The notes under the pieces: generated by a model | What the model was told of the DNA's origin: nothing | Database searches by the model: none | The model's input: only the letters and a program-made list of their open reading frames with translations | NCBI GenBank assembly: GCA_030698625.1 | Contig: JAUYMS010000042.1 | Location: 28,150 to 92,149 of the forward strand | Direction: 5' to 3' | DNA length: 64,000 bases | DNA from: Candidatus Omnitrophota bacterium | GTDB lineage: Bacteria > Omnitrophota > Omnitrophia > Omnitrophales > Aquincolibacteriaceae | In this document: piece by piece, positions 28,542 through 54,700 of the stretch | Position numbering within the stretch: position 1 is the stretch's first letter | Layout: every line of letters begins with the position of its first letter | Position numbers and translations under genes: made by a program

Positions 28542-29294
28542 ATGGCCGCAATGGTAGAGTTTATAGGGATCAAGAAATGCTACGGCAATAAGGTTGCCGT
28601 CAAGGGATTGGATCTCGAAATCAACATGGGTGAGATTTTTGCGCTTGTCGGCCCGAACGGCGCGGGGAAAACCTCCAGTCTCAAGATGCTCGTCGGGCTT
28701 CTCAAACCCACGGGAGGGCAAATCCGCATCGGCGGATACGATTTCGCCGCTGAGCGTGTTAAAGCAAAAGGCCTCGTGAGCTTCGTTCCCGACACGCCCT
28801 ATGTCTACGAAAAACTAACACCGTGGGAACTGCTCCGTTTCGTAGGCAAACTCTATTCGATGCATCCGAAAGTGATCGAAGAAGAAGGGACCATGCTCTT
28901 GGAGTTCTTTTCTCTGTCTCATGTGCAGGATGTCCTCATCGAGGAATTCTCGCACGGCATGCGCCAAAAGGCCGTACTCGCCTCCGCGCTCGTCCACCAA
29001 CCCAAGGTATTCATCCTGGATGAACCGATGGTGGGCCTTGACCCCATGAGCATTAAAAGTTTCAAAGACTTCATACGCAGAAAAGCGGCCGAAGGCATGA
29101 CGATCATCCTGTCCACTCACGCCCTGTATCTCGCCGAGGAACTTGCGGATCGTATCGGAATTATCCACGAGGGCGAGTTGATTGCGCTTGGATCGATCAA
29201 GGACTTGCAGAAGAAATATCAGTCGCGGGAAAATCTGGAAAACATGTTCATCAAACTTGTCGAAACCGAAGAGATTCGTTCCCAAAAGGAATAG
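28542..29294 (+). CDS. ABC transporter ATP-binding protein
   Basis: Walker A GPNGAGKTS; Walker B ILDEP; 250 aa; 24-nt gap after the transglutaminase-like gene. Confidence 0.9.
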   Translation: MAAMVEFIGIKKCYGNKVAVKGLDLEINMGEIFALVGPNGAGKTSSLKMLVGLLKPTGGQIRIGGYDFAAERVKAKGLVSFVPDTPYVYEKLTPWELLRFVGKLYSMHPKVIEEEGTMLLEFFSLSHVQDVLIEEFSHGMRQKAVLASALVHQPKVFILDEPMVGLDPMSIKSFKDFIRRKAAEGMTIILSTHALYLAEELADRIGIIHEGELIALGSIKDLQKKYQSRENLENMFIKLVETEEIRSQKE

Positions 29295-29296
29295 GC

Positions 29297-33393: not shown

Positions 33394-33429
33394 CAGTTCC
33401 TCAATCCCTGTCTAGGGTAGAAAATAGGG

Positions 33430-34659
33430 TCAAATTTGTTCGTAGAATTGCTGAACGACCGCATCAGCACGAATGGAAGAAGGATCCCAACCCATTAAAG
33501 TAATGCCCTTGCCGCTGCGCGCCCGGCTGAGCGCCACATAAGCCTGCCCGGGTTCCCAAAGAGAACGCAGACTCACGTGCATGCGATCGAGCGTTGTGCC
33601 CTGCATCTTGTGAATGGTGCTGGCATAAGCCAAAGTCACGGGGAAATTAGTCGCGAAGGCGGCTTCCACTCCCTCATCATCCAGGACCGTAAATGTAAAA
33701 GGTTCCACATCAATAACCTTCTTCCCCACCCTGATGCACAACGCGTCTTCGAACAACTCTTCAATCGTGCCGACGGTTCCGTTCACGTACCGCTGTTTGG
33801 GATCATTCATCCGCATCATCACAAGCGCACTTTTCTTAAGTTCGAGGATCTCGGGAACCGGCGCATCCCGCTTAAGCCGTGTCACGTAAATGTCCCGTCC
33901 GCCGTACTCGGTGGGGTAACACCGCATGGGGTGTTTAATTTCACTTAGCCTTGCCCGGTTAAAGGCACTGGTTTCGGCGCGGCGGGGAAATACATGAGGC
34001 ACATCACTTTCAAGTTCTTCGTCCGTAATAAGCCGTTCCTGCAAAAAGGCCTCGACCCTTTCGGTCGTCTTGCCGAGCCGGACATCCCCAAGAATCTGCA
34101 AAAAGGCTACATCCGTTGTACGCTTCACTTCGATAAGAATGACCTTCTTGAACTTCGCCTGACGCCAGGCCTCGGACAAAAAACACCACTCCCGTTCCCG
34201 GCCGCGGCTGATCGGCGGGAGCTGGGCAAAATCCCCGACCGCAATGATCCGGATACCGCCCCACGGTAATTTGGACTTTCTTGCGGCCCTTGCGATTTTC
34301 TCCGCACAATCCAGGCTCTCACTCGAAAGCATCGAAACCTCATCAATGACAAGCGTCTTCGTTTCCGCAATCCGTCTCTTTAAACGCTTGTTTTTCAAGG
34401 CCTTCTGCACAACGAATTCAGGGCCGCCCTGCATAATTCCCAAACCGAAGAAACTGTGGAAGGTCCGGCCGCCGATCAAGATAGCGGCCGCACCGGTACT
34501 CGCCACGACCGGGATCTCCTCGCGGCTTCTCGTCAAATACTCGGCAATAAGAAAACTTTTGCCCGTGCCGGGGCCGCCGGTCAGGAAAACATTATCGCTG
34601 CCGTCCAGCATTTCGGTCAGTCCGGCTTGTTGGGAACGTGTCAATTTGACGGGTTTCAT
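33430..34659 (-). CDS. PIF1/RecD-like superfamily-1 DNA helicase
   Basis: Walker A GGPGTGKSFLI; RTFHSFFGL; C-terminal STIHKMQGTTLD motif typical of Pif1/RecD helicases. Confidence 0.7.
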   Translation of the reverse strand: MKPVKLTRSQQAGLTEMLDGSDNVFLTGGPGTGKSFLIAEYLTRSREEIPVVASTGAAAILIGGRTFHSFFGLGIMQGGPEFVVQKALKNKRLKRRIAETKTLVIDEVSMLSSESLDCAEKIARAARKSKLPWGGIRIIAVGDFAQLPPISRGREREWCFLSEAWRQAKFKKVILIEVKRTTDVAFLQILGDVRLGKTTERVEAFLQERLITDEELESDVPHVFPRRAETSAFNRARLSEIKHPMRCYPTEYGGRDIYVTRLKRDAPVPEILELKKSALVMMRMNDPKQRYVNGTVGTIEELFEDALCIRVGKKVIDVEPFTFTVLDDEGVEAAFATNFPVTLAYASTIHKMQGTTLDRMHVSLRSLWEPGQAYVALSRARSGKGITLMGWDPSSIRADAVVQQFYEQI

Positions 34660-34682
34660 TATAATGAGGGATGTCGAGCTTA

Positions 34683-35261
34683 TTAGGAGTTACGCGGAGG
34701 ATATTCTTTTAGTAGCGATTTTAATCTTACACTACAGTCGCTGCCATATTGAGTCGCTAGTTTCGCAAGAAGGCCTTGATCGATTTTCTCGCCTGACACT
34801 TTCAGCACGCCGATAATGTCCTGCGTATCTTTGGGAGAACCGGCGAAAATCTTCATTGCAATAAAATCTTCCCGGCTAACGATCTTCACTTGGCAATCCA
34901 TGAACCTTGCCTCCTGAACACGACGGAATGCTTCTTGCTCCATGCCGCGGATTCCGATCAGGAGGTCCACACGATTATGAAAATCATCTTGAATGTTGAT
35001 GACCGCGGTAATCGGATCCTCAGAATCGCCTCTGCGGTGGTCAAACCTTAAGCCCCGGGCACTCAGATCTCTGCCGAGATCAAGGGCTTCCTGGGTGGTC
35101 TGAACCGAAATCACGGCATCCGCATCCAGACTGGCTCGAACCATACCATAAAAGGAGGCCGCAAAGGCTCCGATAATCGCATAGTCGATATGCCGCTTAT
35201 TCAACACGGAAATCACATCGAGGAGAAGTAAAGCCGACTGACCGGAAGCCGTCGTTCTCAT
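34683..35261 (-). CDS. nucleotidyltransferase-fold (Pol-beta-like) protein
   Basis: GAFAASFYGMVRASLDADAV fits the GS-x(9-13)-DxD NTase motif. Start set to the in-frame ATG at 35261 (MRTTASG...); the longer track ORF has an unconserved N-extension. Confidence 0.45.
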   Translation of the reverse strand: MRTTASGQSALLLLDVISVLNKRHIDYAIIGAFAASFYGMVRASLDADAVISVQTTQEALDLGRDLSARGLRFDHRRGDSEDPITAVINIQDDFHNRVDLLIGIRGMEQEAFRRVQEARFMDCQVKIVSREDFIAMKIFAGSPKDTQDIIGVLKVSGEKIDQGLLAKLATQYGSDCSVRLKSLLKEYPPRNS

Positions 35262-35538
35262 GCTTTTGACTTTTTTTCTTTTCCCGCTATTGAGAATTGG
35301 ATCACAAGCTGCGAATGACGATAAAATGCCAACAACCTCTCTTCCGGAGAAAGGGAGCAATTCAGTTTGATAAGGTCGTCGTAATCTTGTTGAAGAACGC
35401 GCGATTTCATAACAAAAATATACCACACTCCGGCTCAAAAAGGATCAAATGAATAGCGTTCCAAAGTAGTTTCAATTGGGACCAATTATACCAGTGGCTC
35501 AGGGCAGTTGAAACACTCAAAGAAGCCCGTTCAGCTAT

Positions 35539-35950
35539 CTAAGAACAACGCGTCAATGTGTTCTGATCGGTATGTTCGAATGACCTGCCGTAAATTTCCA
35601 GCATAGTGGTTTCGGCATAAGCCATTTGATTGCCCTCTACCGAAATTTTATGCGTAAACCCGGCCGTTCGCGGTTGACGCATCCCACATCCAGTAACCTG
35701 TTTCATTATGAAAAACTTTTTGATTTGATTTTTTGCTGACAACCTGATGATAGCGAAGCACCGACAAAGCCTGCTCCTCGGCGTTTTTTACATCACCGAT
35801 GGCTTCGAAAAGAATGGTCTCGTAATAGGGATTTTCTTCTTTCCCCTCCGGTTCAGGAGCCACGTCCATCCCTTTATCACCCTTCCAAGTCCCAACCAAA
35901 CACGCCAGAGGACCATAAGCAATTCCATTTATCACGGTTGTTTGACTCAT
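35539..35950 (-). pseudogene. nitrobindin/THAP4-like (DUF1794) heme-binding beta-barrel gene, split by a frameshift near 35650-35665
   Basis: ORF 35648..35950 carries LVGTWKGDKG and YHQVV...ETGYW signatures, then stops after GRVYA. The adjacent frame (ORF 35539..35742) continues with beta-strand-like sequence. Combined length of about 165 aa matches family size. The break lies in a GGGTTT run. Confidence 0.45.
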
Positions 35951-36318
35951 ATTTCACCCTTTCTTTATGAAAAAAGCGCCCCACCGATGCAACTCACCCC
36001 GAGCACAACTCTAATGAGTATCATATACGTAAAATACCGGGGATCATCGCGGCGTAAGACTCTTCCTCTCCCGGTGCCGCCCCAGGTTTCGCCCCGCTTC
36101 CCCTCCTGCAGGTTATCATAGAACCTTTGAGTGGGATACGCGAAATCAACGTCTGGCGTCCCCAACCATTTTCAATTTGAACTATTCAGAAACCTTTGAT
36201 CGGAACAAATCGTACCATTGGCTCCGTGAAATGGAAATGCTAAAGGAAGCGTGCTTGTGCCCTCTGCGTTAGCCGAGTTTTGTAATAGATTAATGACACA
36301 AAAAAAAGATATTTTATT

Positions 36319-36612
36319 TTAACTTTTAATTTTCCCCAATTTGATTTTTTCTAATCCGATAGGAAATTGCTCATGCCAGGCAATCATACCTCTTTTAAGG
36401 CTTGCCACATTCAGCACACCGTCCTTCTTGAGTAGAACTGAGGCTTGCCCAGATCGTTTGCCAGAGCGGCAGATTGTCACGATTGGCTTATTTCTCGGAA
36501 TTTCTTTGATCCTAGCTATTAATTGATCCAGCGGAATATTGAGCGCATCCTTGGTGATCATCGTCTTGTCTGCGGCGTGAGCTACGAAGGAAAAGTCTAC
36601 CCCGGCGAGCAT
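36319..36612 (-). CDS. rhodanese-domain protein, apparently N-terminally truncated
   Basis: C-terminal half of a rhodanese fold with active-site loop TICRSGKRSGQAS; the N-terminal half of the domain is not present. Confidence 0.5.
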   Translation of the reverse strand: MLAGVDFSFVAHAADKTMITKDALNIPLDQLIARIKEIPRNKPIVTICRSGKRSGQASVLLKKDGVLNVASLKRGMIAWHEQFPIGLEKIKLGKIKS

Positions 36613-37425
36613 GAAGCTTTTCTTTCAGAAGAAGTTTACAATCAAGCGCAAGTATTGTTGAAGCTAAATAAGCGCGAGCGCGGCGTTTCAAAGAACAAAA
36701 AATTTGATGGCATTCTGAGCCGTCTGTTTCGATGTGCTTGTTGTCACGCCAGCATGTGTCATGGTTACGCCAAAAAGAAGAACAACGCCTACCGCTATTA
36801 CACATGCCTCACCGCGCTCAAAAGAAACAGGAAAGACTGCCCTATCAAAAGCGTAAGTGCCTCAGTGATTGAAAATAAATGTCTGGATATTCTGCGGTAT
36901 ATTTCAAGCGATGAGCGGCTTGAAAAAGAACGGTGGAAAGCTTTGAATCTCGAAGAGCAAATCACCGCTTTGCGCTCGCTTGTGCGGCAGATCAATTATG
37001 ATGGCCAAAAAGGAAAACTGTATATCGAATTGACCCATGACTCGCACAAGCATGAATTCGACCTCCCGTTGGCAGCACTGAAAAGCCGCTTGAGAACCAC
37101 AGGCGAGCCAAACCTTGAACAGGAACCTCCCATTAGAAGGCAGCTCTTGCTCGCTCATCAGATCCAGCAAATGCTCGACAAAGGCCAAGCCAAAGACTTG
37201 AACCAACTGGCAGGATGGCTCGGCGTGAGCAAAACCCGCCTCGACCAAATCACAAATCTGCTCTATCTCTGCCCCAAGATCCAAGAAGAAATCATTAATG
37301 GCGACCGCCTGCAAATCGAGCGAATCGGAGAAAGAACGATTCGTCCCCTCTCTGTTGAAATCGACTGGCAGCAGCAGATCAGCGCTTGGAAAAAACTGCT
37401 TTCAAGCGAAACCCTCTCCGCGTAA
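36523..37425 (+). pseudogene. C-terminal fragment of a large serine recombinase (recombinase and zinc beta-ribbon domains only; catalytic resolvase domain missing)
   Basis: YRYYTC...RKDCP zinc-ribbon motif and coiled-coil region typical of large serine recombinases. No N-terminal catalytic Ser domain. Lower GC than surroundings. About 330 bp from tRNA-Glu. Confidence 0.6.
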
Positions 37426-37752
37426 ACCAGAGATAGACGCTCCACAAAAACCAATCATCCGATCATAAGCTGGTTGTGGGCTGATTTTTGGATCAGACAT
37501 CTCTGAGATTTGCGCCATAAGGGATCAAAACCAGTTCGCAAAAATAATGTTCACTTTAGAGAGGAATCGGAGATTGCACACGAGAAATGGCCTTGTCTGG
37601 AGATGTGGTTTTGAAACCAGAACGACTTGGCAAAAGGCTGAAACTCACGCTTGCCCTAAGCCTTTGAAACGTCGCGAGATGAAGAAGGCCTTGGCTCGTT
37701 TTGCGAACCAAGGCCTTAAAATCTATCTCTGTCGCGCAGAGATAGACATGAT

Positions 37753-37858: not shown

Positions 37859-40800
37859 TTACGCGGCTGTGCGCAATTCTTCCTGTGCGGCAAGATAAGT
37901 CGAAATGGCGGCCATGACGAAGCCGAATGCGTCGGGGGCCAGCTGTGAGGGGTCCAGAATATCGGGCGACTCGGCTAATTGTCTGTGCAGGGAAACGGCC
38001 GCGGTCGTAATGTATGCGGCCAACACCTCTGCGCGCAGTAAAGCATCCGCGGAATATCGAAAACGCGTCAGGCCGCGCCTCCAATGCGGAAAATCATTTC
38101 GGTCGAGCACGCCGTGGCGCTCACCGGTGCCGAAACGGCGCTTCGGAACCGAAACCAATTTCCTGTTCGTCACCGTCGCCACGACTTCAAACTGCCCGTC
38201 GTGTAAAGCAAGTCCCAACCGCTTGGCTTCGTCCAAAATACCTTTTTGGACCCTTTGGGCCTGATCCTCAGTGATGCCTTCAATGTTCAGACGAAGCGCA
38301 CCGGCCGTGTTATAAACAACGGCGAGCACCGGGACAAAGCTCGTGTAATTCTCAGGCGCTTGCGGCAACTGCACATGCACCGCATTCCCCTTCTCGGGCG
38401 TAAATGCTGTCGTTGGTTTGAAACCCAGTTGTTCGGAGATCAAGTCAGAAAATGCCTGCAAATCTTCGGATGTAATTCCTGCGGTCTCGATACCAAGAAT
38501 CAGTTCTACCAAACGGTCCTCGAACCATGCGCGGGCGGCTGTTTGACGTGCCGTAATTCGCCGGCCGTCTTTATCAACGACGGCAACGCGCTCCGGCAGC
38601 CGCACAGCGATACCGGCTTCGGAGAACACAGACCCGAGCCTCGCGGCGACTTCCACAGCGGTTTCTCGGCCCGCCGGATCGAAGCCCGGAACTCCGTCAA
38701 AACGAGTATTTCGGTACCGGCGTCTTACATCGAGGCCGAATTCGTGAGTGGTTGAAATCTCCGAAGGCGCCGCTGCACGTAGTTCCGAGCGGTCAGGTTC
38801 AACAGCAACATCGGGACGGGACGAATCCAAAACACGTTTGCTTTCATTAATAAAATTGCTTATTTCAGGCGACAAATGTGCCCGTTTCGTAAGAAAACCG
38901 TCCGGTCCGGTCATGCCGGCGACAAGCTGGTAAACCGGCAAATAAAACGGCGTCCGGTCACTCCAGTCATGTTTGGCTTGTGCCGCCTGAACGGTCAGGC
39001 TGTCCCATCGTGACCCGTTCCTTTTTTTGATCGCCACGGCCCGGGTGACCGCTTGGAGCAAGGCGTCACCCGTATAGTCGTAAAACAGAAAAGCATCACC
39101 CTTGTCCGTCTCCTCGTCGTAATCATTGAGCGTCGCCGCCAAGCCGCCAACGCCTCGGCCGATGACTAGGGCTCCTCCGGCCAGGGCCTCCATCTGAGTA
39201 ATTCCGCCCGGCTCATAGCGCGAAGGCATGAGGAAGAAATCACTGCCCGTCATGACTTCCCAAGCCGCTTGAATCGGCACAAATGTGAACTGCCCGTAGA
39301 TGCGGCCCGGATACCGGCGCGTTAATTCCGGCAGAATTTGATACAAGGCGTCGGCCGTAGCATCGCCCTGCTTTATGATCGTTCCGCTGGCGTCGCGTTG
39401 ACTCAATGCCGCCGGTCCTGCAATGAAAATTTGAATGCGTTCATCTTTTTTAAGTATCTTTTCCAGCACGGTTTCTCCGCTTTCATCCGTTTCAGTCAGA
39501 AGCGGCAGGCCCTTTTGATCGGAGAGTCTTCCCACCATGGACAGCAGGATCGCGTCGTCACGTTCCTCGAGCCCGTATTTTTTTTGAACGCGGCGTTTCG
39601 TTTCGGCCTTGGCTGCCGGTAAATCACGAAGATACGCCTCGTTACTGAAGTCCTCCGGCGCCCTTCCTGAAAGACCCCAGAGAATCCGCCGAAAAGCGGG
39701 TTGATCGATACCGTTACTGATGCCAAAAAGGCGGTCTGAATATTCGCGAAGGTTCTTGTCGAGCCCCTCCCCGCCTTCCGGTGTCAGCATCTGCTCGGCA
39801 TAAAGTTTACTCATCGTCGTCAGGGCTTGCGTAACCTGGGCAAACGTCGAGGCCACAAGATTCATGTGGTCCGGGTCATTCGGATCCTTAACCAGATCAT
39901 AGGTCATGCGCTGCCGTCCCTGTTCTTCGTATTCATTGGGAAGGTTCAAGAACGGCCACAAATCGATATCACCTTCGTTGGTATAAATGCGTTTCTGAAA
40001 ATGAGGGGGGTAATTATGAATCGTGAACATCGTTTCGGCTTGTTGCAAATAGGGGTCTCTATTGTAGCGGGGTCCCCTGCGGAAAAACAAGGGGATGAGA
40101 CTTGCCATCCAGTCGTGCGCTGAAATGACGTGCGCATCCACGCCGATGCTGCGGTCCTTGAGAATTTCAAGGCTGCCCCGGGAAAGAAAGATCGTGCGTT
40201 TAAGCTCTTCGGAGTGTGACACCTGCGGGTAAAGCTCGTCGCCCAAACGGCGGTGACGCAGAAATAAATAACGGACGCCCCCGTCATTGGCCTCATAGAC
40301 CTTGGCCTTAATGATCCTGGCGAAAGTTCGGACCTTGTCATCCGTAATGCCCGTGATATGGGTGCCTGACCGATAGGTCGGACCGAAAGGGATTGTTACC
40401 TCGCCGACAGGGTCGGGGGCCAGTCGAATGACTTCATCATGGATTCGAAATCCGTCGCGCAATACAGTCTCGGCACTTTCGTGGTGTTTCGGAAGTTCTT
40501 TTTCATACAAAGTTGTGATGACGGTCACGGAAATGCCGCTTCGCACCAACGCGCGGCTCAGCCCTTCCATCACCTTGGCGAGGCCGCCGGCAATCGCGTG
40601 GGACGCCTCAGGAGAAACAAAAACTACCTCACCGACACCGAGCGTTTCTACGGCAAGATAGGCTGGAAGCTTGCGATCCCGTTCGGTCTCGGAATCCGTC
40701 GCAAGGTCTGTACGCAAACGGGCATGATGCTCAAAAAGGCGAACGAGAAGAGCTTCATCATCCTGCACCGCCTCAAAAACTAATTTACCCGTCCCCCGCA

Positions 40801-43800
40801 CCTTGTCGTCGCGGACCAAGCGGTGCATGGTACTGATGTAATCGTCATAATCAGAAATACTACCGCGTATCACGCCGCGGAGACGATTCTTTTCCGCTTC
40901 TCGGTCCGCATCGGCCACCTTATTGCCTTCTCCGAAAGGTACCACAGGCCCATCAATCACCAGTTCCGCGTCGTCTTCCCGGCCGTTGCCTTGCCATAGA
41001 ACGGTTCCGGTTTGGAAATCCTCGACATAAACCGTCAGACCAAATAGACCCGCGCGCCCGGGCCGGACTTCCCCGGTCAATGTGTACGTGCCGTCGCCAT
41101 TGTCGGTGATATTCTCCGGTGTCACTTCATCATCGGTCCAGCGGTAAGCCGGATCACTATAGGAGCCCCAATGCACGAAGAAGTTCAGGTTCGCAAAGTC
41201 TTCGGGCCGGTCGAGGCGGAAATCAATTTCAAGAACACCGCGGTCTTCTTCGCGATTTACGCGAGGTTTGGAAAGAAACTTAACGGACGGGCCTTCACCG
41301 GCCCGCAATTCCGAGCGCTCAGAATCGTTGACGTTCTCGCGGCTCAGTCGCTGTCCTACGTCTTCGGCCAAGCGGCCGAGGAACTCCCGATTCTTGGGGT
41401 CATAAACCCATGCCTCCAAAGCCTCGACACTGCGTTGAAATTTCTGCGGATCCCCTTCTTTTTTGGCTTCTTTGACGCCGTGCCAAAGGTTGCCGACCCC
41501 GAGCCCGAGAGCATCTAAACTATCTAACAATCCAAAATCATCAATGAGATCAATCACTTTTTCGAACTCCTCGACTGACCGAGCATACAGAATACCTGCT
41601 TTCCAGAGATGCGGGTCTTCGTCCGGCTTTATGTAGAAGGGTATCTGACTGGCCAGTAAGGTTGCATGAGTGAACAAAAGCCGCAAGCGCCAAAAGACGG
41701 GGTGCTCTTCAAAAGGAAACGGGTTGCTCTCCGGGTCTGCCAGAAATCGCGCAAAGTCCTCTCTGAATTCCTCCATAATGCCGATCCACTTTTTTGTGGC
41801 CATCTCTTCGTTATCTTCCTCGGAATCAAAGTATTCCTGCAGCGTTGCCGGCTGAGCCGCGTCTTCATCAACGTGAATCTCATAGTGATATCTCTTATAA
41901 TGCGTCACCACCAAATCATAGCCGCCGTAGAGATTGTGCATGAGCTTCGCAAAGTCGTAGAGCGGGTCATTGCCTTCGGGAATGTTTTTGGGGTCTACGA
42001 GTTTAAATTCGCCTAAATCGCCCCGTCCGATAAAGTCAAAAGGATCGGCGAGGATATTTCCGAAATGCAGGTCTCCGTGCTGCTGCGACAGATACGGCGG
42101 CAGAAATATTTGAGGGAAAAGCGGCGTTATCAGACGCAGGACTTCAAGCATAACAGGCAAATTCGGACTAAGCGTGGGTTCCCGGTTCATGAGCGCTAAC
42201 TTAATATAGGGTGCGGCAAACAGGCGGTCGATCTTCTCCGACTTCGCCCGGGCCTCGGCGAAGCGATTATCGAGTTTGTCCCGAAAATGATAGCGGTCGA
42301 GAAAATCCGGAGGTGTCACGCTCTGTCGCCGCAAATAAAAATCGGGCATGAGCCGCTCATAGGTTTCCAAAGCCATCTGGAACGGTGATTTGATCGACGG
42401 GGCAAACCGGCTGAGTGACCGCAGCAACGCCATGTCGCCCAACTCTAAGGCGTCGGTGCCGGCCCGCGGCACATAGTTGACATCAAGTAACCTGGTGAGA
42501 TTCATGGACGGCATGCCTTGAAAGAAAATGTCTTCCATGAGGACAACGGTTGCTTCCGGACTGTCTTCAATGTTGTAAATACTCGGATACCACTTTGCCC
42601 GCGGATCGCCGCTTTCGTAGAGTTCCGCGATCAATCGCGCTTCGGCCAACAGCTTTCCCCCGTCCTCGCGGGGATCGGCCCGCTTTTCGATGAGGGTTCT
42701 AAAACCTTCTGCATCGTCGGGCTCGATGATACGTGTGACCGTACTGTAGGAACCTCCGTGCAACTTCTGTCTTGCGGGAAGTTCCAATTCATAGTCCGGT
42801 TCTTGCGGAATCCAAATCTGACGGACCCGGCGGGCTCCGGTGTTCATCTTTTCCATGGCCCCTGTGCTTAGCATATACATCACACCATAAGCGCCCGGAT
42901 GGTCGCCGGCACGAGCTATCTCCACATAAGGGCTGTCATACACAGTGACATCGCGCGTAAATAGAATACCTTTAGAATCCATAGCTCCGTCCACTATGAG
43001 CGTATCGACCGCACGCCGCATGCGATAGGCGATTTCGGGACCGTGAGATCTCAGGTCTTTGACAATGGCCTGAGTGATGCGGTCACGCTCGGATGCAGCA
43101 AAGATCTCGGGCGGAGTCCCTTCCCAGCCGTCAATAGAATCAGGGGCCGCTACGACCGCCCAGCGAATCCCCTGCGATTCAAGGTCATGTGCAATTTCCC
43201 AAAACTTGAGATCGTCCTTCGCATAAAAAGCCTGTTCCAGCGCTTCAAATTGCGCCATGAGCGCTTCGTCGGACTCCAAAAACCGAAGCTCCGACCGGCC
43301 CCGATGACCTTCGACGAAGCGGTTAAAACCGGCAGATGCCGACAAGAGATTTGCGACCAGGGTTTCCTGGTCCGTATCGCGAGCGGCCTGCTTGGCGCTC
43401 CTATTCAAGTGCACCATGGCAGTCCCTTGATCAAAGGTAAAATCTGCTGCCTGCGCAATTTTTGAGAATACCGGATGCGCGGACAGAGCGGTCATCATGC
43501 GATGAGCGGCGCGCGCTGTTTTCAAACCATAGTGCCCCGTCAAAACGGGAGCGGCCCACTCGAGAAGCCCTTTGAACAACAGGGCCTCTTGCCTGGTCTC
43601 AAACGGATACTTTCCTTCAAAATAACCTTTAAGGTCCGCGTGCCTGCCGGACATGACTTCGCGGTACAAATCCCCATGATCGTAACCGGCACCATTCGGA
43701 CTGACAATCGCATAGCCGGCACCGGCATCTTCCAAAGCCGCGCGCAAGCCTTCGGTATGAAACCCTCCGGCGACGATAACCAGCACGGCACGCGATCTGT

Positions 43801-45337
43801 CTGTGCCCTTCTGCCGGGTTGCGGCGACCGATTCCAGGGCATGAGTAAGCATGAATTCATCACGAAGCCACGCGCTGTCATAAAATTCGTGTGCCCGGCT
43901 CCAGAGTCGTGCACGTCCCAGCTTGTCGCGCTTCTCGGATTCAACCCATAAATCTTTCACGGCCGCCGAACGGCTCCGTATCTCGTTCCATTCATCCCTT
44001 GTCAATTCCCGCCTGAGCAGCTTCTCCACGAGGTCAAGATCCCCGCGCTTTCGCACAAAACCCTTATCTCTTTCCGTTTGAGCAAAGCGATCAATCAGCA
44101 CGGCCTCCAGGCGCTCGACTTCCTGCATAAGATCCACCGCATTAATCTCAGACCGGTAAACGAAAACCCTGAAGGTTAGGAAAAACTGTGAGAAACGGCC
44201 GAGATCCAGCCCGCGCTGTTTCGCCAAAAGATACACGCGTTCGAGCAGCATTCGCGGATAGAAGGAACCGAGCGCCGCTTTGTCTTTAGAGTCCCCGTGC
44301 TCCGCCTGCAGATAGCCATGCCGCACTCCGAACCGCCGCAGCTCTTCAAAGAGTTCATCATCATTGCGATCCGTAGAGTTGGTCCATAACTCGTCCAAGA
44401 GTGTCTGCCACTCGCGGCTTGCGCGCCGGCCGTCCAGAAAGGTCTCCGTTTCCTGAAGGGCGAGCATTCGAATCAGGTTAGGAAACCGCAGTTGTTCAAT
44501 GGGATTCTCGAGATCAACGTTTAACGTTTTACGGACTTGGCCGCGAATATAATCCAGATAGGCTAGCCAGTTTGGTTCACCCAAGGAGCGGCCGGGACCG
44601 AACTTCCCCTGTTTGCGCCGGGCCCGCTCTTTGAGAAAATCTCTTAAGGCCATGCTGTCGAGTTTGGAGCGTTCCGTCTCGAGCTCCGCGTTTAACCACA
44701 GCAAAGATTTTTCGATAGCATCGCCGGCTCGTTCGAGTGCCCGATAGGCCGACAGGTTCTTGCGGTATAGCTCCGGCTTCTCAACTCCGAATACGGGGAT
44801 ATCGGTGCCGCCCTCTACTTTGGCATCGCGATAGCGCCGCCAAGCAAACAGTTCCGCACCGGTAAGCTCGCCTTGATTCAAAAGCTCCTGAACCACGCGC
44901 TCACCCGCTTCGGGGTACTCCGGGAAAAAGTCAAAATACTCAGGATGAAGCTCCCCGCTAGCCCCTTCAACGGCAACCTGCAGGGAAGCCCCTGTTGCTT
45001 TCGCATTCTGAGCGAGATGTTTCAATATATAGAAGATGTTTTGCTGGGCCTCGGGATTGGCATGCATATCACGGATATGGACTACGAAGGGCAGTTGCTC
45101 CTGCTCGGAGCCCACGACATTTTGGACATACCCTATTTCTCCGGGAAGGGCACCGAGTATATCGAGGAAGGGGGACTCCGGATGGAGTCCGGACATCATA
45201 CGCGCCTCAAGGTCGCTCGGCGGCATGAGCGCCGGCAGCGTAGGCGCAGACCATGCCACCGTTGTCACAAACATATTAAATGCGACAACTAAAGCGGATA
45301 GTCTCAGGACTCCTGACTTTCTAAATTCGAAAACCAT
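37859..45337 (-). CDS. giant multidomain protein B (2492 aa): signal peptide, Tiki/TraB-like N-domain, APH-like kinase domain, CBM-like module, GT5 glycogen-synthase-like domain, uncharacterised C-terminal region
   Basis: Intact ORF in the track. N-terminus MVFEFRKSGVLRLSALVVAFNMFVTTVAWSAP shares the TTVAWSAP signal-peptide end with gene A. Three in-frame RSELR sites at 38777-38791, 41303-41317 and 43283-43297. Flanked by tRNA-Lys upstream and tRNA-Glu 28 nt downstream. Confidence 0.85.
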   Translation of the reverse strand: MVFEFRKSGVLRLSALVVAFNMFVTTVAWSAPTLPALMPPSDLEARMMSGLHPESPFLDILGALPGEIGYVQNVVGSEQEQLPFVVHIRDMHANPEAQQNIFYILKHLAQNAKATGASLQVAVEGASGELHPEYFDFFPEYPEAGERVVQELLNQGELTGAELFAWRRYRDAKVEGGTDIPVFGVEKPELYRKNLSAYRALERAGDAIEKSLLWLNAELETERSKLDSMALRDFLKERARRKQGKFGPGRSLGEPNWLAYLDYIRGQVRKTLNVDLENPIEQLRFPNLIRMLALQETETFLDGRRASREWQTLLDELWTNSTDRNDDELFEELRRFGVRHGYLQAEHGDSKDKAALGSFYPRMLLERVYLLAKQRGLDLGRFSQFFLTFRVFVYRSEINAVDLMQEVERLEAVLIDRFAQTERDKGFVRKRGDLDLVEKLLRRELTRDEWNEIRSRSAAVKDLWVESEKRDKLGRARLWSRAHEFYDSAWLRDEFMLTHALESVAATRQKGTDRSRAVLVIVAGGFHTEGLRAALEDAGAGYAIVSPNGAGYDHGDLYREVMSGRHADLKGYFEGKYPFETRQEALLFKGLLEWAAPVLTGHYGLKTARAAHRMMTALSAHPVFSKIAQAADFTFDQGTAMVHLNRSAKQAARDTDQETLVANLLSASAGFNRFVEGHRGRSELRFLESDEALMAQFEALEQAFYAKDDLKFWEIAHDLESQGIRWAVVAAPDSIDGWEGTPPEIFAASERDRITQAIVKDLRSHGPEIAYRMRRAVDTLIVDGAMDSKGILFTRDVTVYDSPYVEIARAGDHPGAYGVMYMLSTGAMEKMNTGARRVRQIWIPQEPDYELELPARQKLHGGSYSTVTRIIEPDDAEGFRTLIEKRADPREDGGKLLAEARLIAELYESGDPRAKWYPSIYNIEDSPEATVVLMEDIFFQGMPSMNLTRLLDVNYVPRAGTDALELGDMALLRSLSRFAPSIKSPFQMALETYERLMPDFYLRRQSVTPPDFLDRYHFRDKLDNRFAEARAKSEKIDRLFAAPYIKLALMNREPTLSPNLPVMLEVLRLITPLFPQIFLPPYLSQQHGDLHFGNILADPFDFIGRGDLGEFKLVDPKNIPEGNDPLYDFAKLMHNLYGGYDLVVTHYKRYHYEIHVDEDAAQPATLQEYFDSEEDNEEMATKKWIGIMEEFREDFARFLADPESNPFPFEEHPVFWRLRLLFTHATLLASQIPFYIKPDEDPHLWKAGILYARSVEEFEKVIDLIDDFGLLDSLDALGLGVGNLWHGVKEAKKEGDPQKFQRSVEALEAWVYDPKNREFLGRLAEDVGQRLSRENVNDSERSELRAGEGPSVKFLSKPRVNREEDRGVLEIDFRLDRPEDFANLNFFVHWGSYSDPAYRWTDDEVTPENITDNGDGTYTLTGEVRPGRAGLFGLTVYVEDFQTGTVLWQGNGREDDAELVIDGPVVPFGEGNKVADADREAEKNRLRGVIRGSISDYDDYISTMHRLVRDDKVRGTGKLVFEAVQDDEALLVRLFEHHARLRTDLATDSETERDRKLPAYLAVETLGVGEVVFVSPEASHAIAGGLAKVMEGLSRALVRSGISVTVITTLYEKELPKHHESAETVLRDGFRIHDEVIRLAPDPVGEVTIPFGPTYRSGTHITGITDDKVRTFARIIKAKVYEANDGGVRYLFLRHRRLGDELYPQVSHSEELKRTIFLSRGSLEILKDRSIGVDAHVISAHDWMASLIPLFFRRGPRYNRDPYLQQAETMFTIHNYPPHFQKRIYTNEGDIDLWPFLNLPNEYEEQGRQRMTYDLVKDPNDPDHMNLVASTFAQVTQALTTMSKLYAEQMLTPEGGEGLDKNLREYSDRLFGISNGIDQPAFRRILWGLSGRAPEDFSNEAYLRDLPAAKAETKRRVQKKYGLEERDDAILLSMVGRLSDQKGLPLLTETDESGETVLEKILKKDERIQIFIAGPAALSQRDASGTIIKQGDATADALYQILPELTRRYPGRIYGQFTFVPIQAAWEVMTGSDFFLMPSRYEPGGITQMEALAGGALVIGRGVGGLAATLNDYDEETDKGDAFLFYDYTGDALLQAVTRAVAIKKRNGSRWDSLTVQAAQAKHDWSDRTPFYLPVYQLVAGMTGPDGFLTKRAHLSPEISNFINESKRVLDSSRPDVAVEPDRSELRAAAPSEISTTHEFGLDVRRRYRNTRFDGVPGFDPAGRETAVEVAARLGSVFSEAGIAVRLPERVAVVDKDGRRITARQTAARAWFEDRLVELILGIETAGITSEDLQAFSDLISEQLGFKPTTAFTPEKGNAVHVQLPQAPENYTSFVPVLAVVYNTAGALRLNIEGITEDQAQRVQKGILDEAKRLGLALHDGQFEVVATVTNRKLVSVPKRRFGTGERHGVLDRNDFPHWRRGLTRFRYSADALLRAEVLAAYITTAAVSLHRQLAESPDILDPSQLAPDAFGFVMAAISTYLAAQEELRTAA
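39150..40650 (-). other. GT5 glycogen/starch-synthase-like glycosyltransferase domain within protein B
   Basis: N-terminal SPEASHAIAGGLAKVMEGLSRAL (K-x-G-G-L motif) and C-terminal SRYEPGGITQMEALAGG (E-P-x-G-x-x-Q-x-E-A) of GT-B retaining synthases; motif DNA at about 40567-40620 and 39185-39235. Confidence 0.55.
40990..41290 (-). other. beta-sandwich carbohydrate-binding-module-like region (CBM25/CBM53-like) preceding the GT5 domain of protein B
   Basis: FANLNFFVHWGSYSDPAYRW...GTYTLTGEVRPGRAGLFGLTVYVEDFQTGTVLWQGNG begins directly after ERSELRAGEG. The arrangement resembles the starch-binding-domain plus GT5 layout of starch synthase III. Confidence 0.3.
41890..43240 (-). other. APH/choline-kinase-like phosphotransferase domain within protein B
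   Basis: HGGSYSTV ... QQHGDLHFGNIL (HGDxxxxN catalytic loop) ... GNDPLYDFAKL. Paralogous to the domain in protein C. Confidence 0.6.
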
Positions 45338-50458: not shown

Positions 50459-51430
50459 TTAGAACCAGCTGACTCTCTTTTGCGCGGCCGGAATCTTCTT
50501 ATCATCCTCGTGCAGGCTTTCATTCATTTCCATCGGATGGGCTTGATGGACTCCCATCTGGGGGGCAAAAACAATGGAATCGGAGGAATTTACCGTTATC
50601 TGGCGCACTTCGCTCAGCATATCCTGCTTAAAGTCAATCATTGCCGGCTCCTCGCCGTCATCTTCAACGATCCCCTCGAGAACCGTGCGGCGATCCTGAA
50701 ACGGCGGATGCGTATTCATAAAGACGACGAACCGGCTCACGTCGTCCATTTCAATCTGTGTTAACCGTTCCACAAAGGCCTTGAAACCTCTGGGGTCGTA
50801 ACCGGCCGCGACAAGGTATTCAACGGCCTTTTCATCGGCGTGAATCTCGGCGTCCTTTCCAAACTGTCGGCCAATATAGGGAGCCGCCTTGCCGGTGTAT
50901 TTTACGGCGTAATAAGCGGCCGTTCCGTAGGTTCCGATACTGTTGCGGGCCAGTTCGGTACCTTTAGACAAAGCGTCGTAGGCCTTCTTCATCTTGTCAT
51001 GCTTGGGAATATGCGAGTACTCGTAGTAGGAAATATGCCCAATTTCATGGGCTATAATACCGGCCAGCTCCGACTCGGAGCGGACAAAGTTAACCATGCC
51101 CCGCGTCATGTAGATATAGCCTCCGGGGCCGCCGAATATGTTCACATCATCACTATCGAGAAGAATTACGTGATAGGGCAGGTGGGGTCGCGTAGAAACA
51201 GCAGCGATGCTCGACGCAATCGCATTGAGATAAGTTTCAAACTTCGGGCTATCGTAGATCTGGTATTCCTCTAAGACCCGCCTGTGATTTTGCTCCCCAG
51301 CTCTAATCTCGACCAAATCATCTAACGTTAGCGGAAGTTCTTGGCTTATAACACCCTTGCGATCAATGCGCGAGCAACCGGCAGCAACAACTATCATAGC
51401 TATCAGCACTGCGTAGGCCATTCGTGCCAT
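50459..51430 (-). CDS. M48-family zinc metallopeptidase lipoprotein (YcaL/BepA-like)
   Basis: HEIGH zinc motif and downstream EIHADEKAV / GYDPRG motifs; lipoprotein signal MARMAYAVLIAMIVVAAGCS. Start placed at the ATG at 51430, preceded by GAGGAG 8 nt upstream. Confidence 0.8.
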   Translation of the reverse strand: MARMAYAVLIAMIVVAAGCSRIDRKGVISQELPLTLDDLVEIRAGEQNHRRVLEEYQIYDSPKFETYLNAIASSIAAVSTRPHLPYHVILLDSDDVNIFGGPGGYIYMTRGMVNFVRSESELAGIIAHEIGHISYYEYSHIPKHDKMKKAYDALSKGTELARNSIGTYGTAAYYAVKYTGKAAPYIGRQFGKDAEIHADEKAVEYLVAAGYDPRGFKAFVERLTQIEMDDVSRFVVFMNTHPPFQDRRTVLEGIVEDDGEEPAMIDFKQDMLSEVRQITVNSSDSIVFAPQMGVHQAHPMEMNESLHEDDKKIPAAQKRVSWF

Positions 51431-51504
51431 GAGGCACTCCTCGTTCATTAATCTACTTCTTCCTATAATAGAATATACCTCGTCAGCGATCGATTTACAA
51501 TTTT

Positions 51505-51777
51505 CTAGAGGAGCGTAAAAGCGAGCATCCCCATGAGGATCATGAGGATAATAAGGATAAGCCTTCCGTCCTTGATCCATTTCGCAAGCTTTCCGATCGG
51601 CCCGGAATCATCAAAAACCCGTTCGCCGCAATAGAGGCAGGAAAAGCTATTTTCCTTAATCGGCTGGCCGCAATGACGGCATGAAATATCGGCAAGAGGC
51701 CGGGATTCTTCGGCTTCCCATTTCTTGCGAAGGCTCTCGGGTTCTTCTTCCTCTTCTTCGTTAGGCATAAATCTCAA
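51505..51777 (-). CDS. small zinc-ribbon protein with acidic N-terminus and C-terminal TM helix, translationally coupled to giant gene C
   Basis: CRHCG...CLYCG zinc ribbon; C-terminal LILIILMILMGMLAFTLL. ATG overlaps the gene C stop by 17 nt. Confidence 0.5.
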   Translation of the reverse strand: MRFMPNEEEEEEPESLRKKWEAEESRPLADISCRHCGQPIKENSFSCLYCGERVFDDSGPIGKLAKWIKDGRLILIILMILMGMLAFTLL

Positions 51778-54700
51778 CGGCCTTTTGTGAGCGGAGTTCT
51801 TCGACGTATTCCGCTAGGTTGATGATAAAGGCTCCCCGGCTTGAAGAGACGCCCGGTAGGATCATCGGCAATTGCCGGATCAGAATTTCGCGCTGTTTTA
51901 TGGGATCGCTGACGCCGCGAATGAGTTCGGCCGCCTTTAATATTTCGGGGATCATAAGCGCCGCAGCCTGACGGTCGGTTTCGTGCACCTCATCCGGATT
52001 CAAAACAAAATTCGCCGAGCCGATGATATCGCTCAGGTATTGCACGTCATCGGCCAGGAACGCCGCTACCGCATAATCATGGGCCTTGATATAGGAATTC
52101 ATCGCCTCCGCGACGGAGCCCTCGTAAGAGACAACCTCGATGAGCTTATCAAGACGTGAAAGGAGACCGCCGCTACGGCGCAGTGCCATGGTCTTGACCA
52201 TGCCGAGCCCGATTTCCGCATTACGATTCGTCAGCCTGCGGCGAATTTCCGCATAAAGCGCGGGGTTGGCCATCACGGCCACGAAGGGCTCGCTGCTCTG
52301 CGACTGGGCATGAAACTCATCAAGCGCCTCCAAAAAGACATAAAGTGCGCGCGGGGAATCCAGTAAGGCCTGCATCCAATCCGGATCTAAAATGACACGG
52401 CCGGTCCCGGATTCGGCAAGGCCGGGATGATCAGCCTGAACGCGTTCAGGATAATTCACGGCTGCCATGTACTTACCGCCGGCTTTTTCAATCGCACTTT
52501 CGACACGCTCCGGAAAAATTCCGGCCGTAACAGCAAACACCTTTTTGCCGAGCACCTGACTGAGCAGATCCCGAGCGCCTTCGGGCCCGAGGGTCTGAAC
52601 CAGAAGACGCGACATCAGAAATTCGCGAAACTTCTTCAGGGTGATAAGCGCCTCCGGTGAAACCGTTACGACAGGCGAACGCCTGGGCCCCTCCGCGCGC
52701 AATTCCGATCTGTCTGTATCATGAACGGATAATTTGGGAATAATGGCACGAACAGCATCAACCAACGGTGTCGGGACACGAGAGTTGATCATGTGAGCGT
52801 TTCTCGGCTTTCCGATGCCCGGGGAATCGGCCTTCACTTGAGCCATGCCGATCTTATCCGTCTCCTTGGCGCGGTTGGGATAGATTTCATAGTAAACTTC
52901 GGCAATGAGACGTGCCCACTCATACTTGGTCAGCGATTCCGCTCCGTTAATCTGATGGATACCGGTCTTGTTCCCTTGAATAATGTCTAGGGTCAGACTG
53001 GCCACATCCCGCACCGAGGTCGGATGGCGCACCTGTTCGTTATCCAACACGAGAGATGCGCTCTCATCATCCGAATCCAGGAAATCGACGACTTGTTTAA
53101 TGAAATTTTTCTGGATGGCGGCTTCACCGTAACCGATACCCAGCCTCACGACCGCGCCCTTGGGATGCTCGAGCACAAGCTTCTCTCCGGCAGCCTTCGT
53201 TTCCCCATAATAATTGAGCGGCCGGGGTTCGGCGTCTGCGCCATACGGAGCGTTGCCTCCTTCGAAGACATAATTGCTGGACAGATAAATGAGCGGGCCG
53301 TCGAAATATCTGCGGACAGTCTCAACGGCCGTCACATTGAGCGCATAGGCCTTGGCGCGATCGGCTTCCGCCCCCTCGGCGGTAGGTTCTCCGGCCGCAT
53401 AGACAATCACGTCGGGCCGGAATTCAGCGATGAATCGCCGCACGGCCGCCTCATCCTTCACATCGAGCGCCGCGAAAACGTCACCCACGCGGCTGTATGC
53501 GGTGCCGCTCACATTCGCGTAAACTTTGCGCGCGGCCTTGTCTATTTCGCTGCCGACAAAACTCGAGGCGCCAATAACGGCTACGCGCTTGGTTCTTAAT
53601 TCGGAGCGGTCGGCCAGATAGGTCTCTAACTCTTCAATCGCCTGACTGAAACTCGTTTCGTCAAAGCGGGTTGTTTCAATCTTTGACCAGATGTCACGGA
53701 GCTCCGGAGTGGAGTCCAGAATGCCCATCTCGAAAAAGCGGTGAACGACCTCATACACCGCCTGAACCGCCTGCTCGTAGATCACGCTCATCTTCCACTC
53801 CCTCTCGTCGCCCACGACGTGATACGGCAACAGTCCCGCCAGCAAAGTGGCATGGGTGAAAAGTAACCTATCCTTCCAAAAGCCGTTCACTTCAAAAGGA
53901 AAGAGTTCATCTTTGACGGTATCGTCGCGCATGAAAACACGAAAAGCGGCAGAAAACTCTTTGATGTTGCTGAGCATATTGGCGGTGTTCGCATCACTGA
54001 GATCATGATATTCCGACAATACGGCGGCGCCCCCTTCGGTTCCGGGCAGCTCAATCTCAAAATGGTAGGCGTGGGAATGATTCAAGGCCAGGTCATAACG
54101 GCCCTCTTGGTTATGAAGGAGTTTGGCAAAATCGTAGAGCGGGTCATTCCCTTCGGCCATCCATTTGGGATCCACAAACTTCATACGGGAGATTTCTCCG
54201 GTAATCGCATAGTGGAAGCGATCGATCAGGATGTTCCCGAAGTGGAGATCGCCCATCTGTTCCGACAGATAAGGCGGGACAAATCGCATGGGATGAAGCG
54301 AGGACAGGAGCTCCAACACCCTCTTCGTGGTCGGAAGGTTGGGGCGATACTGCTTCTGCAAAGGAGACGTCATGCCGTTGTACCGATTGACCTTTCGCTT
54401 CCGGATCTCGAGATAAGGGGCCGCCAGAAGACGCCGGGCCACTTCCGAATCACGAGCGGCTTCCGCCCACCGTTCATCCAGTTTCTCAAAGTGCTTTTGA
54501 TCGACAAAATCTTCGGGAGTATCCGCCACTTTTTTAAGATAGAGATCGGGCAACAAGTTCCGATAAATATCCACGGCCATCTCAAAGGGCGTTCGATTTG
54601 CCAAACTGAGTTCCGGGCTCAGCACACTGTGTTCGATGACTCGGGTCAGATTCGGCCACGGGATGTCCTCCATCTCGACGACAGTATCCTCTCCATCGTC

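Follow-up and report, generated by a model that had tools for sequence, protein, structure and literature searches.

The B gene and its surroundings

The window, that is, the whole stretch of 64,000 nucleotides that was analysed, carries three giant genes on its minus strand. The one considered here encodes protein B, whose sequence is identical to an NCBI protein entered as "glycogen/starch synthase" from a Candidatus Omnitrophota MAG. The genes and sites of the locus are the following:

37859 to 45337, minus strand: uninterrupted ORF of giant protein B, with an ATG start and 2,492 aa plus stop
45383 to 45411, minus strand: promoter-like site, TTGACA-17-TATCTT, upstream of the B ORF
45524 to 45597, minus strand: tRNA-Lys (UUU), upstream of B
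37753 to 37830, minus strand: tRNA-Glu (UUC), downstream of B
2 to 20074, minus strand: sister giant of at least 6,691 aa that continues beyond the left end of the window, with a signal peptide and an N-domain of the B type and 12 RSELR
51761 to 63964, minus strand: third giant of 4,067 aa that has six RSELR and another copy of the kinase cassette but lacks both signal peptide and N-domain

Besides the ORF itself, all the motifs quoted in a preliminary description of this DNA were located in the B translation: HIRDMH starts at aa 87, VAGGFHTEGL at 522, HGGSYSTV at 860, HGDLHFGNIL at 1087, GNDPLYDFAKL at 1122, AGGLAKVMEGL at 1583 and SRYEPGGITQMEALAGG at 2039. The two tRNA genes said to bracket B were also found, by ARAGORN, on the same strand as B. 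The order frr, tRNA-Lys and N-domain giant is the same in locus L025, and the giant is nearby in L007 and L016. The promoter-like site agrees with the consensus at 10 of 12 positions, a consensus match alone that gives no indication of function. HEAT, PfkB and HAD domains are present in the sister giant 2 to 20074, and a Kyte-Doolittle scan showed internal transmembrane hairpins in sister giants.

Domain composition of B

Read from the N-terminus to the C-terminus, B is composed of the following parts, all encoded on the minus strand:

45245 to 45337, aa 1-31: signal-peptide-like N-terminus, MVFEFRKSGVLR plus the hydrophobic LSALVVAFNMFVTTVAWSA
43448 to 45229, aa ~37-630: family-defining N-domain (head), with a TIKI/ChaN/TraB-fold core
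43283 to 43297, aa 681-685: first RSELR mark, at the end of a linker of ~50 residues modelled with low confidence
41318 to 43282, aa 686-1340: cassette 1, a small alpha/beta region plus a divergent phosphotransferase of the APH/fructosamine-kinase type
41618 to 42775, aa ~855-1240: kinase core within cassette 1
41303 to 41317, aa 1341-1345: second RSELR mark, in a segment with pLDDT <50 (second model)
40952 to 41284, aa ~1352-1462: beta-sandwich opening cassette 2
38918 to 40630, aa ~1570-2140: GT5 glycogen/starch-synthase-like GT-B domain
38777 to 38791, aa 2183-2187: third RSELR mark
37862 to 38773, aa 2189-2492: family-wide C-terminal domain (tail) of orphan fold, ending in ...RTAA-COOH

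The signal peptide of the preliminary description is borne out as a signal-peptide-like N-terminus, a call that rests on hydropathy and on inspection by eye: in a Kyte-Doolittle scan, aa 9-31 form the sole hydrophobic segment of B, and its N-side carries positive charges. The end of this segment, TTVAWSAP, is common to B, the giant 2 to 20074 and their relatives.

The head has an alpha/beta core fold with a parallel sheet, divided by a helical insertion of ~370 aa, and the likeness to Tiki and TraB that had been proposed agrees with its fold and with a set of residues (D90-x-H92, E124, R492 and H527, the last in GGFH) that is essentially invariant in 84 homologues. Judged by sequence only, the order and spacing of this set are those expected for TIKI catalytic residues. 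B itself did not match PF04187, PF01963 or PF05139; among 26 head relatives, weak matches were obtained to PF04187 in five (best E 0.0016) and to PF01963 in one (E 0.066). Neither single-sequence nor profile searches of PDB sequences returned anything significant for the head, including any solved TIKI member; its structural neighbours include the toxin and effector domains RRSP, HopBA1 and PMT. The alpha/beta core is the same as that of the TIKI superfamily (Tiki, TraB/PrgY, ChaN, erythromycin esterases, RRSP and HopBA1), and the site of RRSP and Bcr135, with its acidic-x-His, Glu and His, is matched by B in order and spacing; the B head, however, has Asp in place of the first Glu, and its core is divided by the helical insertion. 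The TIKI fold also covers esterases and haem binders, and a His-Glu pair forms the catalytic residues of the Ere enzymes. A 2His/2Glu site is common to active TIKI enzymes; RRSP acts as a sequence-specific endopeptidase (PMC6254334). This N-domain had been described as common to B and a protein "A", which holds if A is the giant 2 to 20074 but not if it is 51761 to 63964, where the domain is absent.

For cassette 1, an APH/choline-kinase-fold phosphotransferase had been proposed, and a divergent APH/fructosamine-kinase-type fold outside the Pfam thresholds is supported by the catalytic set: in a 39-sequence alignment, K885 (beta3), E899 (alphaC), H1087-G-D1089, N1094 and the metal-binding D1115 are invariant or conserved in at least 90%. 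No Pfam family reaches its threshold for the B kinase; the gathering score of PF01636 is not attained, and B gives no match to it at E <= 0.1. This model scores 12-13 bits at the catalytic loop of close relatives and 26.6 bits against a cutoff of 23.2 in the remote relative P0084. The H-G-D-x-x-x-x-N loop, the metal Asp, the beta3 Lys, the alphaC Glu and GN[DE]PLYDFAKL are shared with APH, choline kinase and fructosamine-3-kinase, to which B adds an N-terminal extension of ~170 aa and a long helical C-terminal extension. A structural match to 3f7w came from a model of low confidence, with pLDDT 64 overall and <50 at the catalytic loop. Kinases were not retrieved by Foldseek with the kinase plus sandwich model, probably since its confidence is low in that region, and among PDB sequences the kinase had no significant match, whether searched as a single sequence or as a profile.

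Cassette 2 opens with a "CBM" that is a real beta-sandwich, whereas its starch binding is putative. Three tryptophans, in HWG (1390), YRW (1400) and VLWQG (1448), are kept in both B and P0002; P0003 has two of the three. The CBM21 matches are weak and come from a model of low confidence. Of the starch-binding-like sandwich proposed earlier the fold stands, but the domain is not demonstrably CBM53, CBM25 or CBM21 and not securely starch-binding. An N-terminal beta-sandwich ahead of the catalytic domain is likewise found in starch synthase III (SSIII).

The Pfam check that had been suggested for the GT5 region gave PF08323 (aa 1571-1865; 113.8 bits against a cutoff of 22.7, E 1.3e-32) and PF00534 (aa 1925-2103; 34.3 bits against 26.4, E 2.2e-8), both above cutoff. 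TIGR02095 (glgA) covered positions 2-475 of its 477 at 222.9 bits, below its cutoff of 328.45, and E. coli GlgA (2qzs) matched at 1e-21. In the alignment, SRYEPGG (2039), RLSDQKG (1937) and AHDW (1740) of B correspond to E377, R300/K305 and H161 of the E. coli enzyme. Of the two GT5 hallmark motifs claimed for B, the catalytic Glu, Arg/Lys and HDW are present, but AGGLAKV is non-canonical: the lysine of K-x-G-G is replaced by Ile, as A-I-A-G-G-L-A-K-V in B and P0002 and as A-I-G-G-G-I in P0003. The corresponding Lys15 of E. coli GlgA (motif K-x-G-G-L) has a role in ADP-glucose binding. As far as the alignments go, it is thus confirmed that the GT5 of B belongs to a divergent subgroup rather than to orthodox GlgA and keeps the catalytic residues. 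With GlgA and the plant starch synthases (CAZy GT5), it shares the GT-B fold, both Pfam domains and the catalytic motifs, but it sits inside a predicted-exported chain of 2.5 kaa, and its score does not reach the cutoff of the glgA subfamily. From the signal peptide, export would be expected, yet the kinase and the GT5 both need nucleotide substrates, and it is difficult to see how enzymes that depend on ATP and NDP-sugars could work once exported.

The C-terminal region that had been reported as unmatched indeed gave no match in Pfam or PDB sequences, and a search of a large database with the tail alignment was also empty; its size, however, is 304 aa after the last RSELR and not ~400 aa. Tail homologues form the extreme C-termini of P0002, of P0007-P0011 and of several ORFs of the genomic loci, and a small residue followed by Ala ends most of the family members examined.

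RSELR marks at the borders of the cassettes

The RSELR copies between the parts of B, three in number (aa 681, 1341 and 2183), had been listed before, but their role as the main organising feature had been missed. In the three giants of the window, RSELR occurs 21 times in frame; composition predicts 0.038 copies, and none of 2,000 shuffles gave more than two. All the Pfam domains of these giants (8/8) lie wholly between marks, and the homology blocks shared by B, the other giant and P0002 begin and end at them; the second mark of B aligns with an RSELR at aa 1939 of P0002 and the third with an RAELR at aa 2758. The two marks covered by the AF2 models both fall in segments with pLDDT <50, and around mark 1 the value is <40 across aa 631-690. 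The excess of disorder-promoting residues in the linkers is modest (p about 0.02).

The pattern extends to the relatives. Per 1,000 aa, head-bearing ORFs contain 1.36 R[SA]ExR, against 0.32 in other ORFs of the same loci, and 33 of 43 related ORFs have their first copy 570-730 residues past the start of the N-domain match. In another clade, we found a second mark, GAR[LM]A, mutually exclusive with R[SA]ExR and present in 7-15 copies per protein; in P0036 (kinase match at 1271-1865 between the marks at 1255 and 1874) and in P0035, it lies on both sides of the homologous kinase cassette. In some head-bearing proteins, no recurrent mark was detected.

Two explanations at the nucleic acid level were ruled out. 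The mark is not a DNA-level repeat or recombination site: the 21 copies are written in many synonymous codons and stand between unrelated flanks, and since the codons vary, it is the amino acids rather than the DNA that are conserved. An internal Shine-Dalgarno or re-initiation site is excluded by codon use and by the absence of a following start codon; the first Arg codon is CGN in 20/21 copies and never AGG, and the marks therefore contain no AGGAG. A full-text literature search for RSELR as a motif returned nothing relevant.

An Omnitrophota family of modular long proteins

These comparisons show B to be of medium size within a family of long modular proteins that is almost confined to Omnitrophota and has more than 80 proteins of the same architecture. 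The order is fixed: signal peptide of Sec type, TIKI-like head of ~600 aa, variable enzyme cassettes and a tail of ~300 aa ending in Ala. A genome scan with a 9-sequence alignment as the query recovered 46 loci, nearly all in Omnitrophota MAGs, and the head is shared by 32 proteins with differing enzymes of cytoplasmic type. Both in the second giant and in P0034, an RmlD-like reductase adjoins the kinase cassette, remote kinase relatives are fused to sugar-1-phosphate-type nucleotidyltransferases, and GT5 cassettes in relatives adjoin PEP-utilising or histidine-kinase domains instead.

B shares its phylum, the predicted signal peptide and the tiling of unrelated metabolic enzyme domains, GT5 included, with the published Archaeovorins and multi-enzyme cluster proteins. 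According to the accessible text of the two studies, GT5 starch-synthase domains are among the commonest in these long proteins (10.1101/2023.11.21.568195; 10.64898/2026.06.07.730766), and sugar kinases, phosphoglucomutase, PPDK, response regulators and HEAT repeats also occur (West-Roberts et al., 2023; Nielsen and Lui, 2026). With its 2,492 aa, and a sister ORF of at least 6,691 aa, B is far under the size thresholds given there, at least 10 kaa (Nielsen and Lui, 2026; 10.64898/2026.06.07.730766) and at least 30 kaa (West-Roberts et al., 2023; 10.1101/2023.11.21.568195). The kinase/GT5 fusion had been called unusual. It is, on the contrary, ordinary for Omnitrophota: the cassettes are interchangeable family-wide, and GT5 plus kinase within giant proteins is already described in the two preprints, so that the fusion is not new. 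The TIKI-headed family with a strict pentapeptide at the borders, on the other hand, appears undescribed in both: in the text of the two preprints that we searched, nothing was found on a head of TIKI type, on a tail kept across the family or on pentapeptides at the borders.

Discussion

The giant genes of Omnitrophota are puzzling, and the two studies that catalogued their domains cannot tell whether a product works as one chain or as many. Taken as a whole, the evidence is best explained, we tentatively propose, if B is a member of a modular family in which the marks are processing sites and B a polyprotein, a reading to which we give nearly as much credence as doubt. The marks would be recognised by a factor peculiar to the lineage, most probably a protease that processes the chain and thereby separates the head, the kinase, the sandwich-GT5 synthase and the tail of B. 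Because RRSP and Tiki are sequence-specific endopeptidases of the same fold, the TIKI-like head would be the best candidate for the protease that cuts the marks. Once released, the GT5 cassette may elongate alpha-1,4-glucan from NDP-glucose, probably with altered donor binding since the K-x-G-G lysine is missing, while the sandwich would hold the glucan and the kinase would use a small molecule, probably a sugar, as its phosphate acceptor.

The simple version in cis is broken by the 4,067-aa giant, which has marks without a head, and by some family members. Within 10 kb of the 46 loci, no protease or secretion gene proved to be conserved, and the search brought out nothing but generic ABC ATPases and the local synteny of ribosomal genes; an M48 peptidase gene adjoining the 4,067-aa giant was considered as the linked protease and rejected, as it is not conserved beside relatives. 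A search of the literature on processing of the Velamenicoccus giant protein brought up only viral polyprotein papers. In principle, though not by homology, B as predicted resembles the MARTX toxins and viral polyproteins: unrelated enzyme cassettes follow one another in one long exported chain, the unstructured linkers between them bear a short recognition sequence, and a conserved hydrolase-like domain belongs to the same chain. The cargo of B, however, consists of metabolic enzymes and not toxins, its processing is inferred, and neither B nor the neighbouring genes contain a cysteine protease domain, RTX repeats or type I secretion components (Pfam, NCBIfam).

A somewhat unlikely alternative, still to be taken seriously, is that B remains intact as an envelope- or membrane-associated multi-enzyme scaffold, with the pentapeptides as hinges or as docking motifs, to be bound for example by a partner, by a chaperone or by the export machinery. 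The absence of a linked protease gene at the 46 loci and the modest enrichment of disorder in the linkers agree with this, and published work, as far as its accessible text goes, handles Omnitrophota giants as single membrane-anchored chains. A passive hinge, however, has no need of an invariant pentapeptide, and a purely structural role is contradicted by the exchange of R[SA]ExR for the unrelated GARLA at homologous borders; the swap points to specific recognition, with which docking is still compatible. Substrate channelling is unlikely because the cassettes are functionally unrelated across the family. That B is an assembly or annotation artefact in which sequencing errors fused several genes, or that it is a pseudogene in decay, is hardly credible, even though the source is a metagenome-assembled genome and the domain combination is unusual: a single frame stays open over 7.5 kb, the more than 80 proteins of the same architecture come from independent assemblies, and marks and catalytic residues are kept while codons change synonymously.

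The preliminary description saw in B a secreted or envelope-tethered unit in which kinase, starch-binding module and GT5 build envelope alpha-glucan. The signal-peptide-like N-terminus, the direct, SSIII-like fusion of a sandwich with weak CBM21 matches to the GT5, the intact GT5 catalytic site and the nucleotidyltransferase fusions of remote kinase relatives are in its favour; we nevertheless find it very improbable, for the kinase cassette is mobile, as seen beside the RmlD-like reductase, the GT5 partners in relatives are PEP-utilising or histidine-kinase domains, B has no nucleotidyltransferase joining a sugar kinase to an NDP-sugar donor, and the sandwich is not a secure starch binder. 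To our knowledge, there are also no nucleotide donors outside the cytoplasm. The clash between export and the need for ATP and NDP-sugar would be relieved if B were an effector polyprotein that enters a host or prey cell: nucleotides are at hand there, and the freed cassettes would rewire carbon metabolism on the MARTX principle. The toxin and effector domains among the structural neighbours of the head fit such delivery, as does the view that Omnitrophota are host-dependent or predatory (PMC10066038); predator intron RNA has been reported inside archaeal cells, according to the accessible text of that study (PMC13153191). Against it, there are no translocation domain, RTX repeats or secretion-system genes in or near B, and the internal transmembrane hairpins of sister giants fit anchoring and not delivery; we rate this reading as improbable.

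A bolder form of the polyprotein reading, that the long proteins of Omnitrophota are true polyproteins with marks cut by the TIKI-fold head or by a partner in trans, freeing enzymes from an exported precursor, possibly in or on a host, seems unlikely to us at present. According to the accessible text of West-Roberts et al. (10.1101/2023.11.21.568195), the cleavage points of the giants are unknown and structure prediction is blocked thereby. If the bolder reading were true, the marks would be the first rule for parsing Omnitrophota giants of 10-150 kaa into functional units. Three families, the head, the tail and the kinase, have been defined here that gave no significant match in Pfam or PDB searches. 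The strict pentapeptide together with the hydrolase-like head and the tail offers a testable grammar, through cut points in silico, pairs of peptide and protease, and proteome termini, and the peptide VNDSERSELRAGEGP is a candidate substrate of the head.

Giant protein B and the RSELR marks

The gene of B is a single unbroken frame that opens with an ATG and codes for 2,492 aa; its product is 100% identical to the NCBI entry 'MAG: glycogen/starch synthase [Candidatus Omnitrophota bacterium]' from a 253-kb contig. All the motifs quoted in the preliminary description were found in B, in the order given there. The features relevant to the analysis, including two other giants in the window, are as follows:

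2..20074, (-): sister giant of at least 6,691 aa, running past the left end of the window
37753-37830, same strand as B: tRNA-Glu, downstream of B
37859..45337, (-): B
about 45 nt before the start of B: promoter-like site, by sequence resemblance
45524-45597, same strand as B: tRNA-Lys, upstream of B
51761..63964, (-): giant of 4,067 aa, without head or signal peptide

The sister giant shares with B the N-terminal domain of TIKI/ChaN/TraB fold (the head) and the same signal-peptide ending (TTVAWSAP), and carries HEAT, ATP-grasp(-like), CheR-like, HAD and PfkB domains. The headless giant contains an alpha/beta hydrolase, an RmlD-like reductase and a copy of the B kinase cassette (35% identity).

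The pentapeptide RSELR occurs in frame 21 times in these three giants (3 in B, 12 in the sister and 6 in the headless giant) and nowhere else in the window, against 0.038 copies expected from composition and at most 2 in 2,000 shuffles. As its codons vary freely and its flanks are unrelated, except that the mark is followed by a small residue and next by acidic ones, selection acts on the peptide. Homology blocks start and stop at the marks, both between B (681-1313) and the 4,067-aa giant (2854-3452) and between B (1341-2188) and P0002 (1939-2763), one of its two closest GT5-bearing relatives. Each of the eight Pfam domains of the three giants fits entirely between marks, and both marks inside AF2 models fall in low-confidence linkers. 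In the headless giant, the reductase is closely framed by marks at aa 3453 and 3752, and one junction bears a doubled mark, RSELRAERSELP. Two hydrophobic segments of the sister giant span aa ~3600-3629, beginning one residue past a mark, and aa ~3975-3996.

A family with a fixed head and exchangeable cassettes

The search with B returned 32 proteins of 1.4-4.3 kaa, most of which, where the N-terminus is complete, begin with a signal-peptide-like segment. The GT5 part is found in only two of them; what the rest have in common with B is just the first ~600 aa, which are followed by PEP-utilising domains, response regulators, HPr, UDP-glucose dehydrogenase, UGPase, PPDK, PEPCK, glutamate dehydrogenase, phosphoglucomutase or radical SAM enzymes. 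When one genome was scanned for each species, 46 head loci emerged; almost all lie in Omnitrophota MAGs, and a genome often has several. A few head-bearing records bear titles other than Omnitrophota: Candidatus Ruminimicrobiellum ovillum (locus L044, two head-bearing ORFs with no recognisable mark) and Planctomycetales (locus L040).

The relatives carry R[SA]ExR in 2-18 copies per protein, with a lineage-specific fourth residue, and the first copy is usually directly after the head. A separate clade (P0035, P0036, P0039 and P0051) has no R[SA]ExR; it bears instead an unrelated and strict pentapeptide, GAR[LM]A, in 7-15 copies per protein. Its first copy is likewise placed after the head, it frames the homologous kinase cassette in P0036 and P0035, and its last copy in P0036 is 8 residues from the C-terminus. 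The two motifs are mutually exclusive and their distribution follows the head-domain tree. The family is built of a fixed head, cassettes and a tail, punctuated in the linkers by lineage-specific marks at the peptide level.

The tail of B, its last 304 aa, has no match in Pfam or PDB, yet many relatives have a homologous segment at their very C-terminus. In most members examined, an amphipathic helix leads to a terminal small residue and Ala (TAA, AAA, SA, QA, KA); in B, the ending is at 37862..37873. It resembles a C-terminal signal recognised in secretion or by a tail-specific protease, or a degron.

The GT5 domain

GT5 identity was upheld by the Pfam search, in which aa 1571-2103 matched PF08323 (1.3e-32) and PF00534, each over threshold. 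B spans the NCBIfam glgA model end to end with 223 bits, below the 328-bit cutoff, and among solved structures it is closest to E. coli GlgA (1e-21). The two share the catalytic motifs, with SRYEPGG, RLSDQKG and AHDW of B aligning with those of E377, R300/K305 and H161, respectively; however, the hallmark motifs are not all intact, as the K-x-G-G lysine is replaced in B (A-I-A-G-G-L), and also in its two closest giant relatives. From the sub-cutoff score, the retained motifs and the lost lysine, we consider the domain divergent but probably active, with donor binding possibly altered.

The GT5 cassette of P0003, the other close GT5-bearing relative, has two tandem beta-sandwich copies (aa ~1540-1760) in place of one, an arrangement similar to the starch-binding module repeats in starch synthase III.

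Comparison with published giants

The preliminary description regarded a kinase joined to GT5 in a giant exported protein as unusual. Its observation was confirmed and its interpretation was supported in part; GT5 and sugar kinases are already reported in long Omnitrophota proteins. GT5 is reported to be the most prevalent glycosyltransferase domain of the Archaeovorins, in which glycosyltransferases rank second among domain classes and the cleavage points are stated to be unknown (West-Roberts et al., 2023, bioRxiv 10.1101/2023.11.21.568195); likewise, the 'multi-enzyme metabolic cluster' class has PF08323 in 153 long proteins, with sugar kinases alongside (Nielsen and Lui, 2026, bioRxiv 10.64898/2026.06.07.730766). 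B is smaller than these proteins. Searches through the text of both works turned up no linker motif, TIKI-like head or conserved tail, and the grammar around the fusion appears to be new. The weight of the finding lies in the punctuation marks and not in the kinase/GT5 fusion.

Possible reading of the marks

We infer that some specific factor recognises the marks, most simply a processing protease, which would cut B, as a polyprotein, into head, kinase, sandwich-GT5 synthase and tail. The head would be the obvious candidate, being the only universally conserved hydrolase-like part, with invariant active-site-type residues and endopeptidase precedents in its fold. Tiki is one such sequence-specific endopeptidase. 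Another is RRSP, also of the TIKI fold (PMC6254334). Any cutting must work in trans as well, because the headless giant bears the same marks. No conserved protease gene was found near the family giants at the 46 loci. A peptidase M48 gene (50459..51580, (-)) shares the strand of the 4,067-aa giant and is located 180 bp downstream of it; as no M48 homologue was found beside related giants across these loci, there is no support for linking it to the marks.

The N-terminus of B predicts export, and B has no further hydrophobic segment, whereas both its enzymes need nucleotides, a paradox that the literature also notes for larger giants. In some relatives a transmembrane helix directly follows the head, an arrangement that would keep the cassettes cytoplasmic.

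Chromosomal setting

B lies in ordinary chromosome, with rpsB, tsf, pyrH and frr upstream and MTHFR, aminotransferase, aldehyde dehydrogenase and SurE genes elsewhere in the window. The flanking tRNA genes reported for it were recovered on both sides. Another species has the same succession of frr, tRNA-Lys and head-bearing giant, so this position does not result from a recent insertion. Adjoining tRNA-Glu is a stretch of lower GC (~33400..37500; 0.47-0.49 vs about 0.54) with a PIF1-like helicase, a DUF2204/DUF6036 nucleotidyltransferase and a serine-recombinase zinc ribbon fragment, which resembles a relic of an element inserted at this tRNA gene. At 26396..26926 (-), a 176-aa protein joins a bactofilin domain to a C-terminal HTH_17 DNA-binding domain, and at 27072..30952 (+), what is apparently a single operon encodes a transglutaminase-like protein and then an ABC ATPase and a PF16949 'putative ATP-binding cassette' membrane protein.
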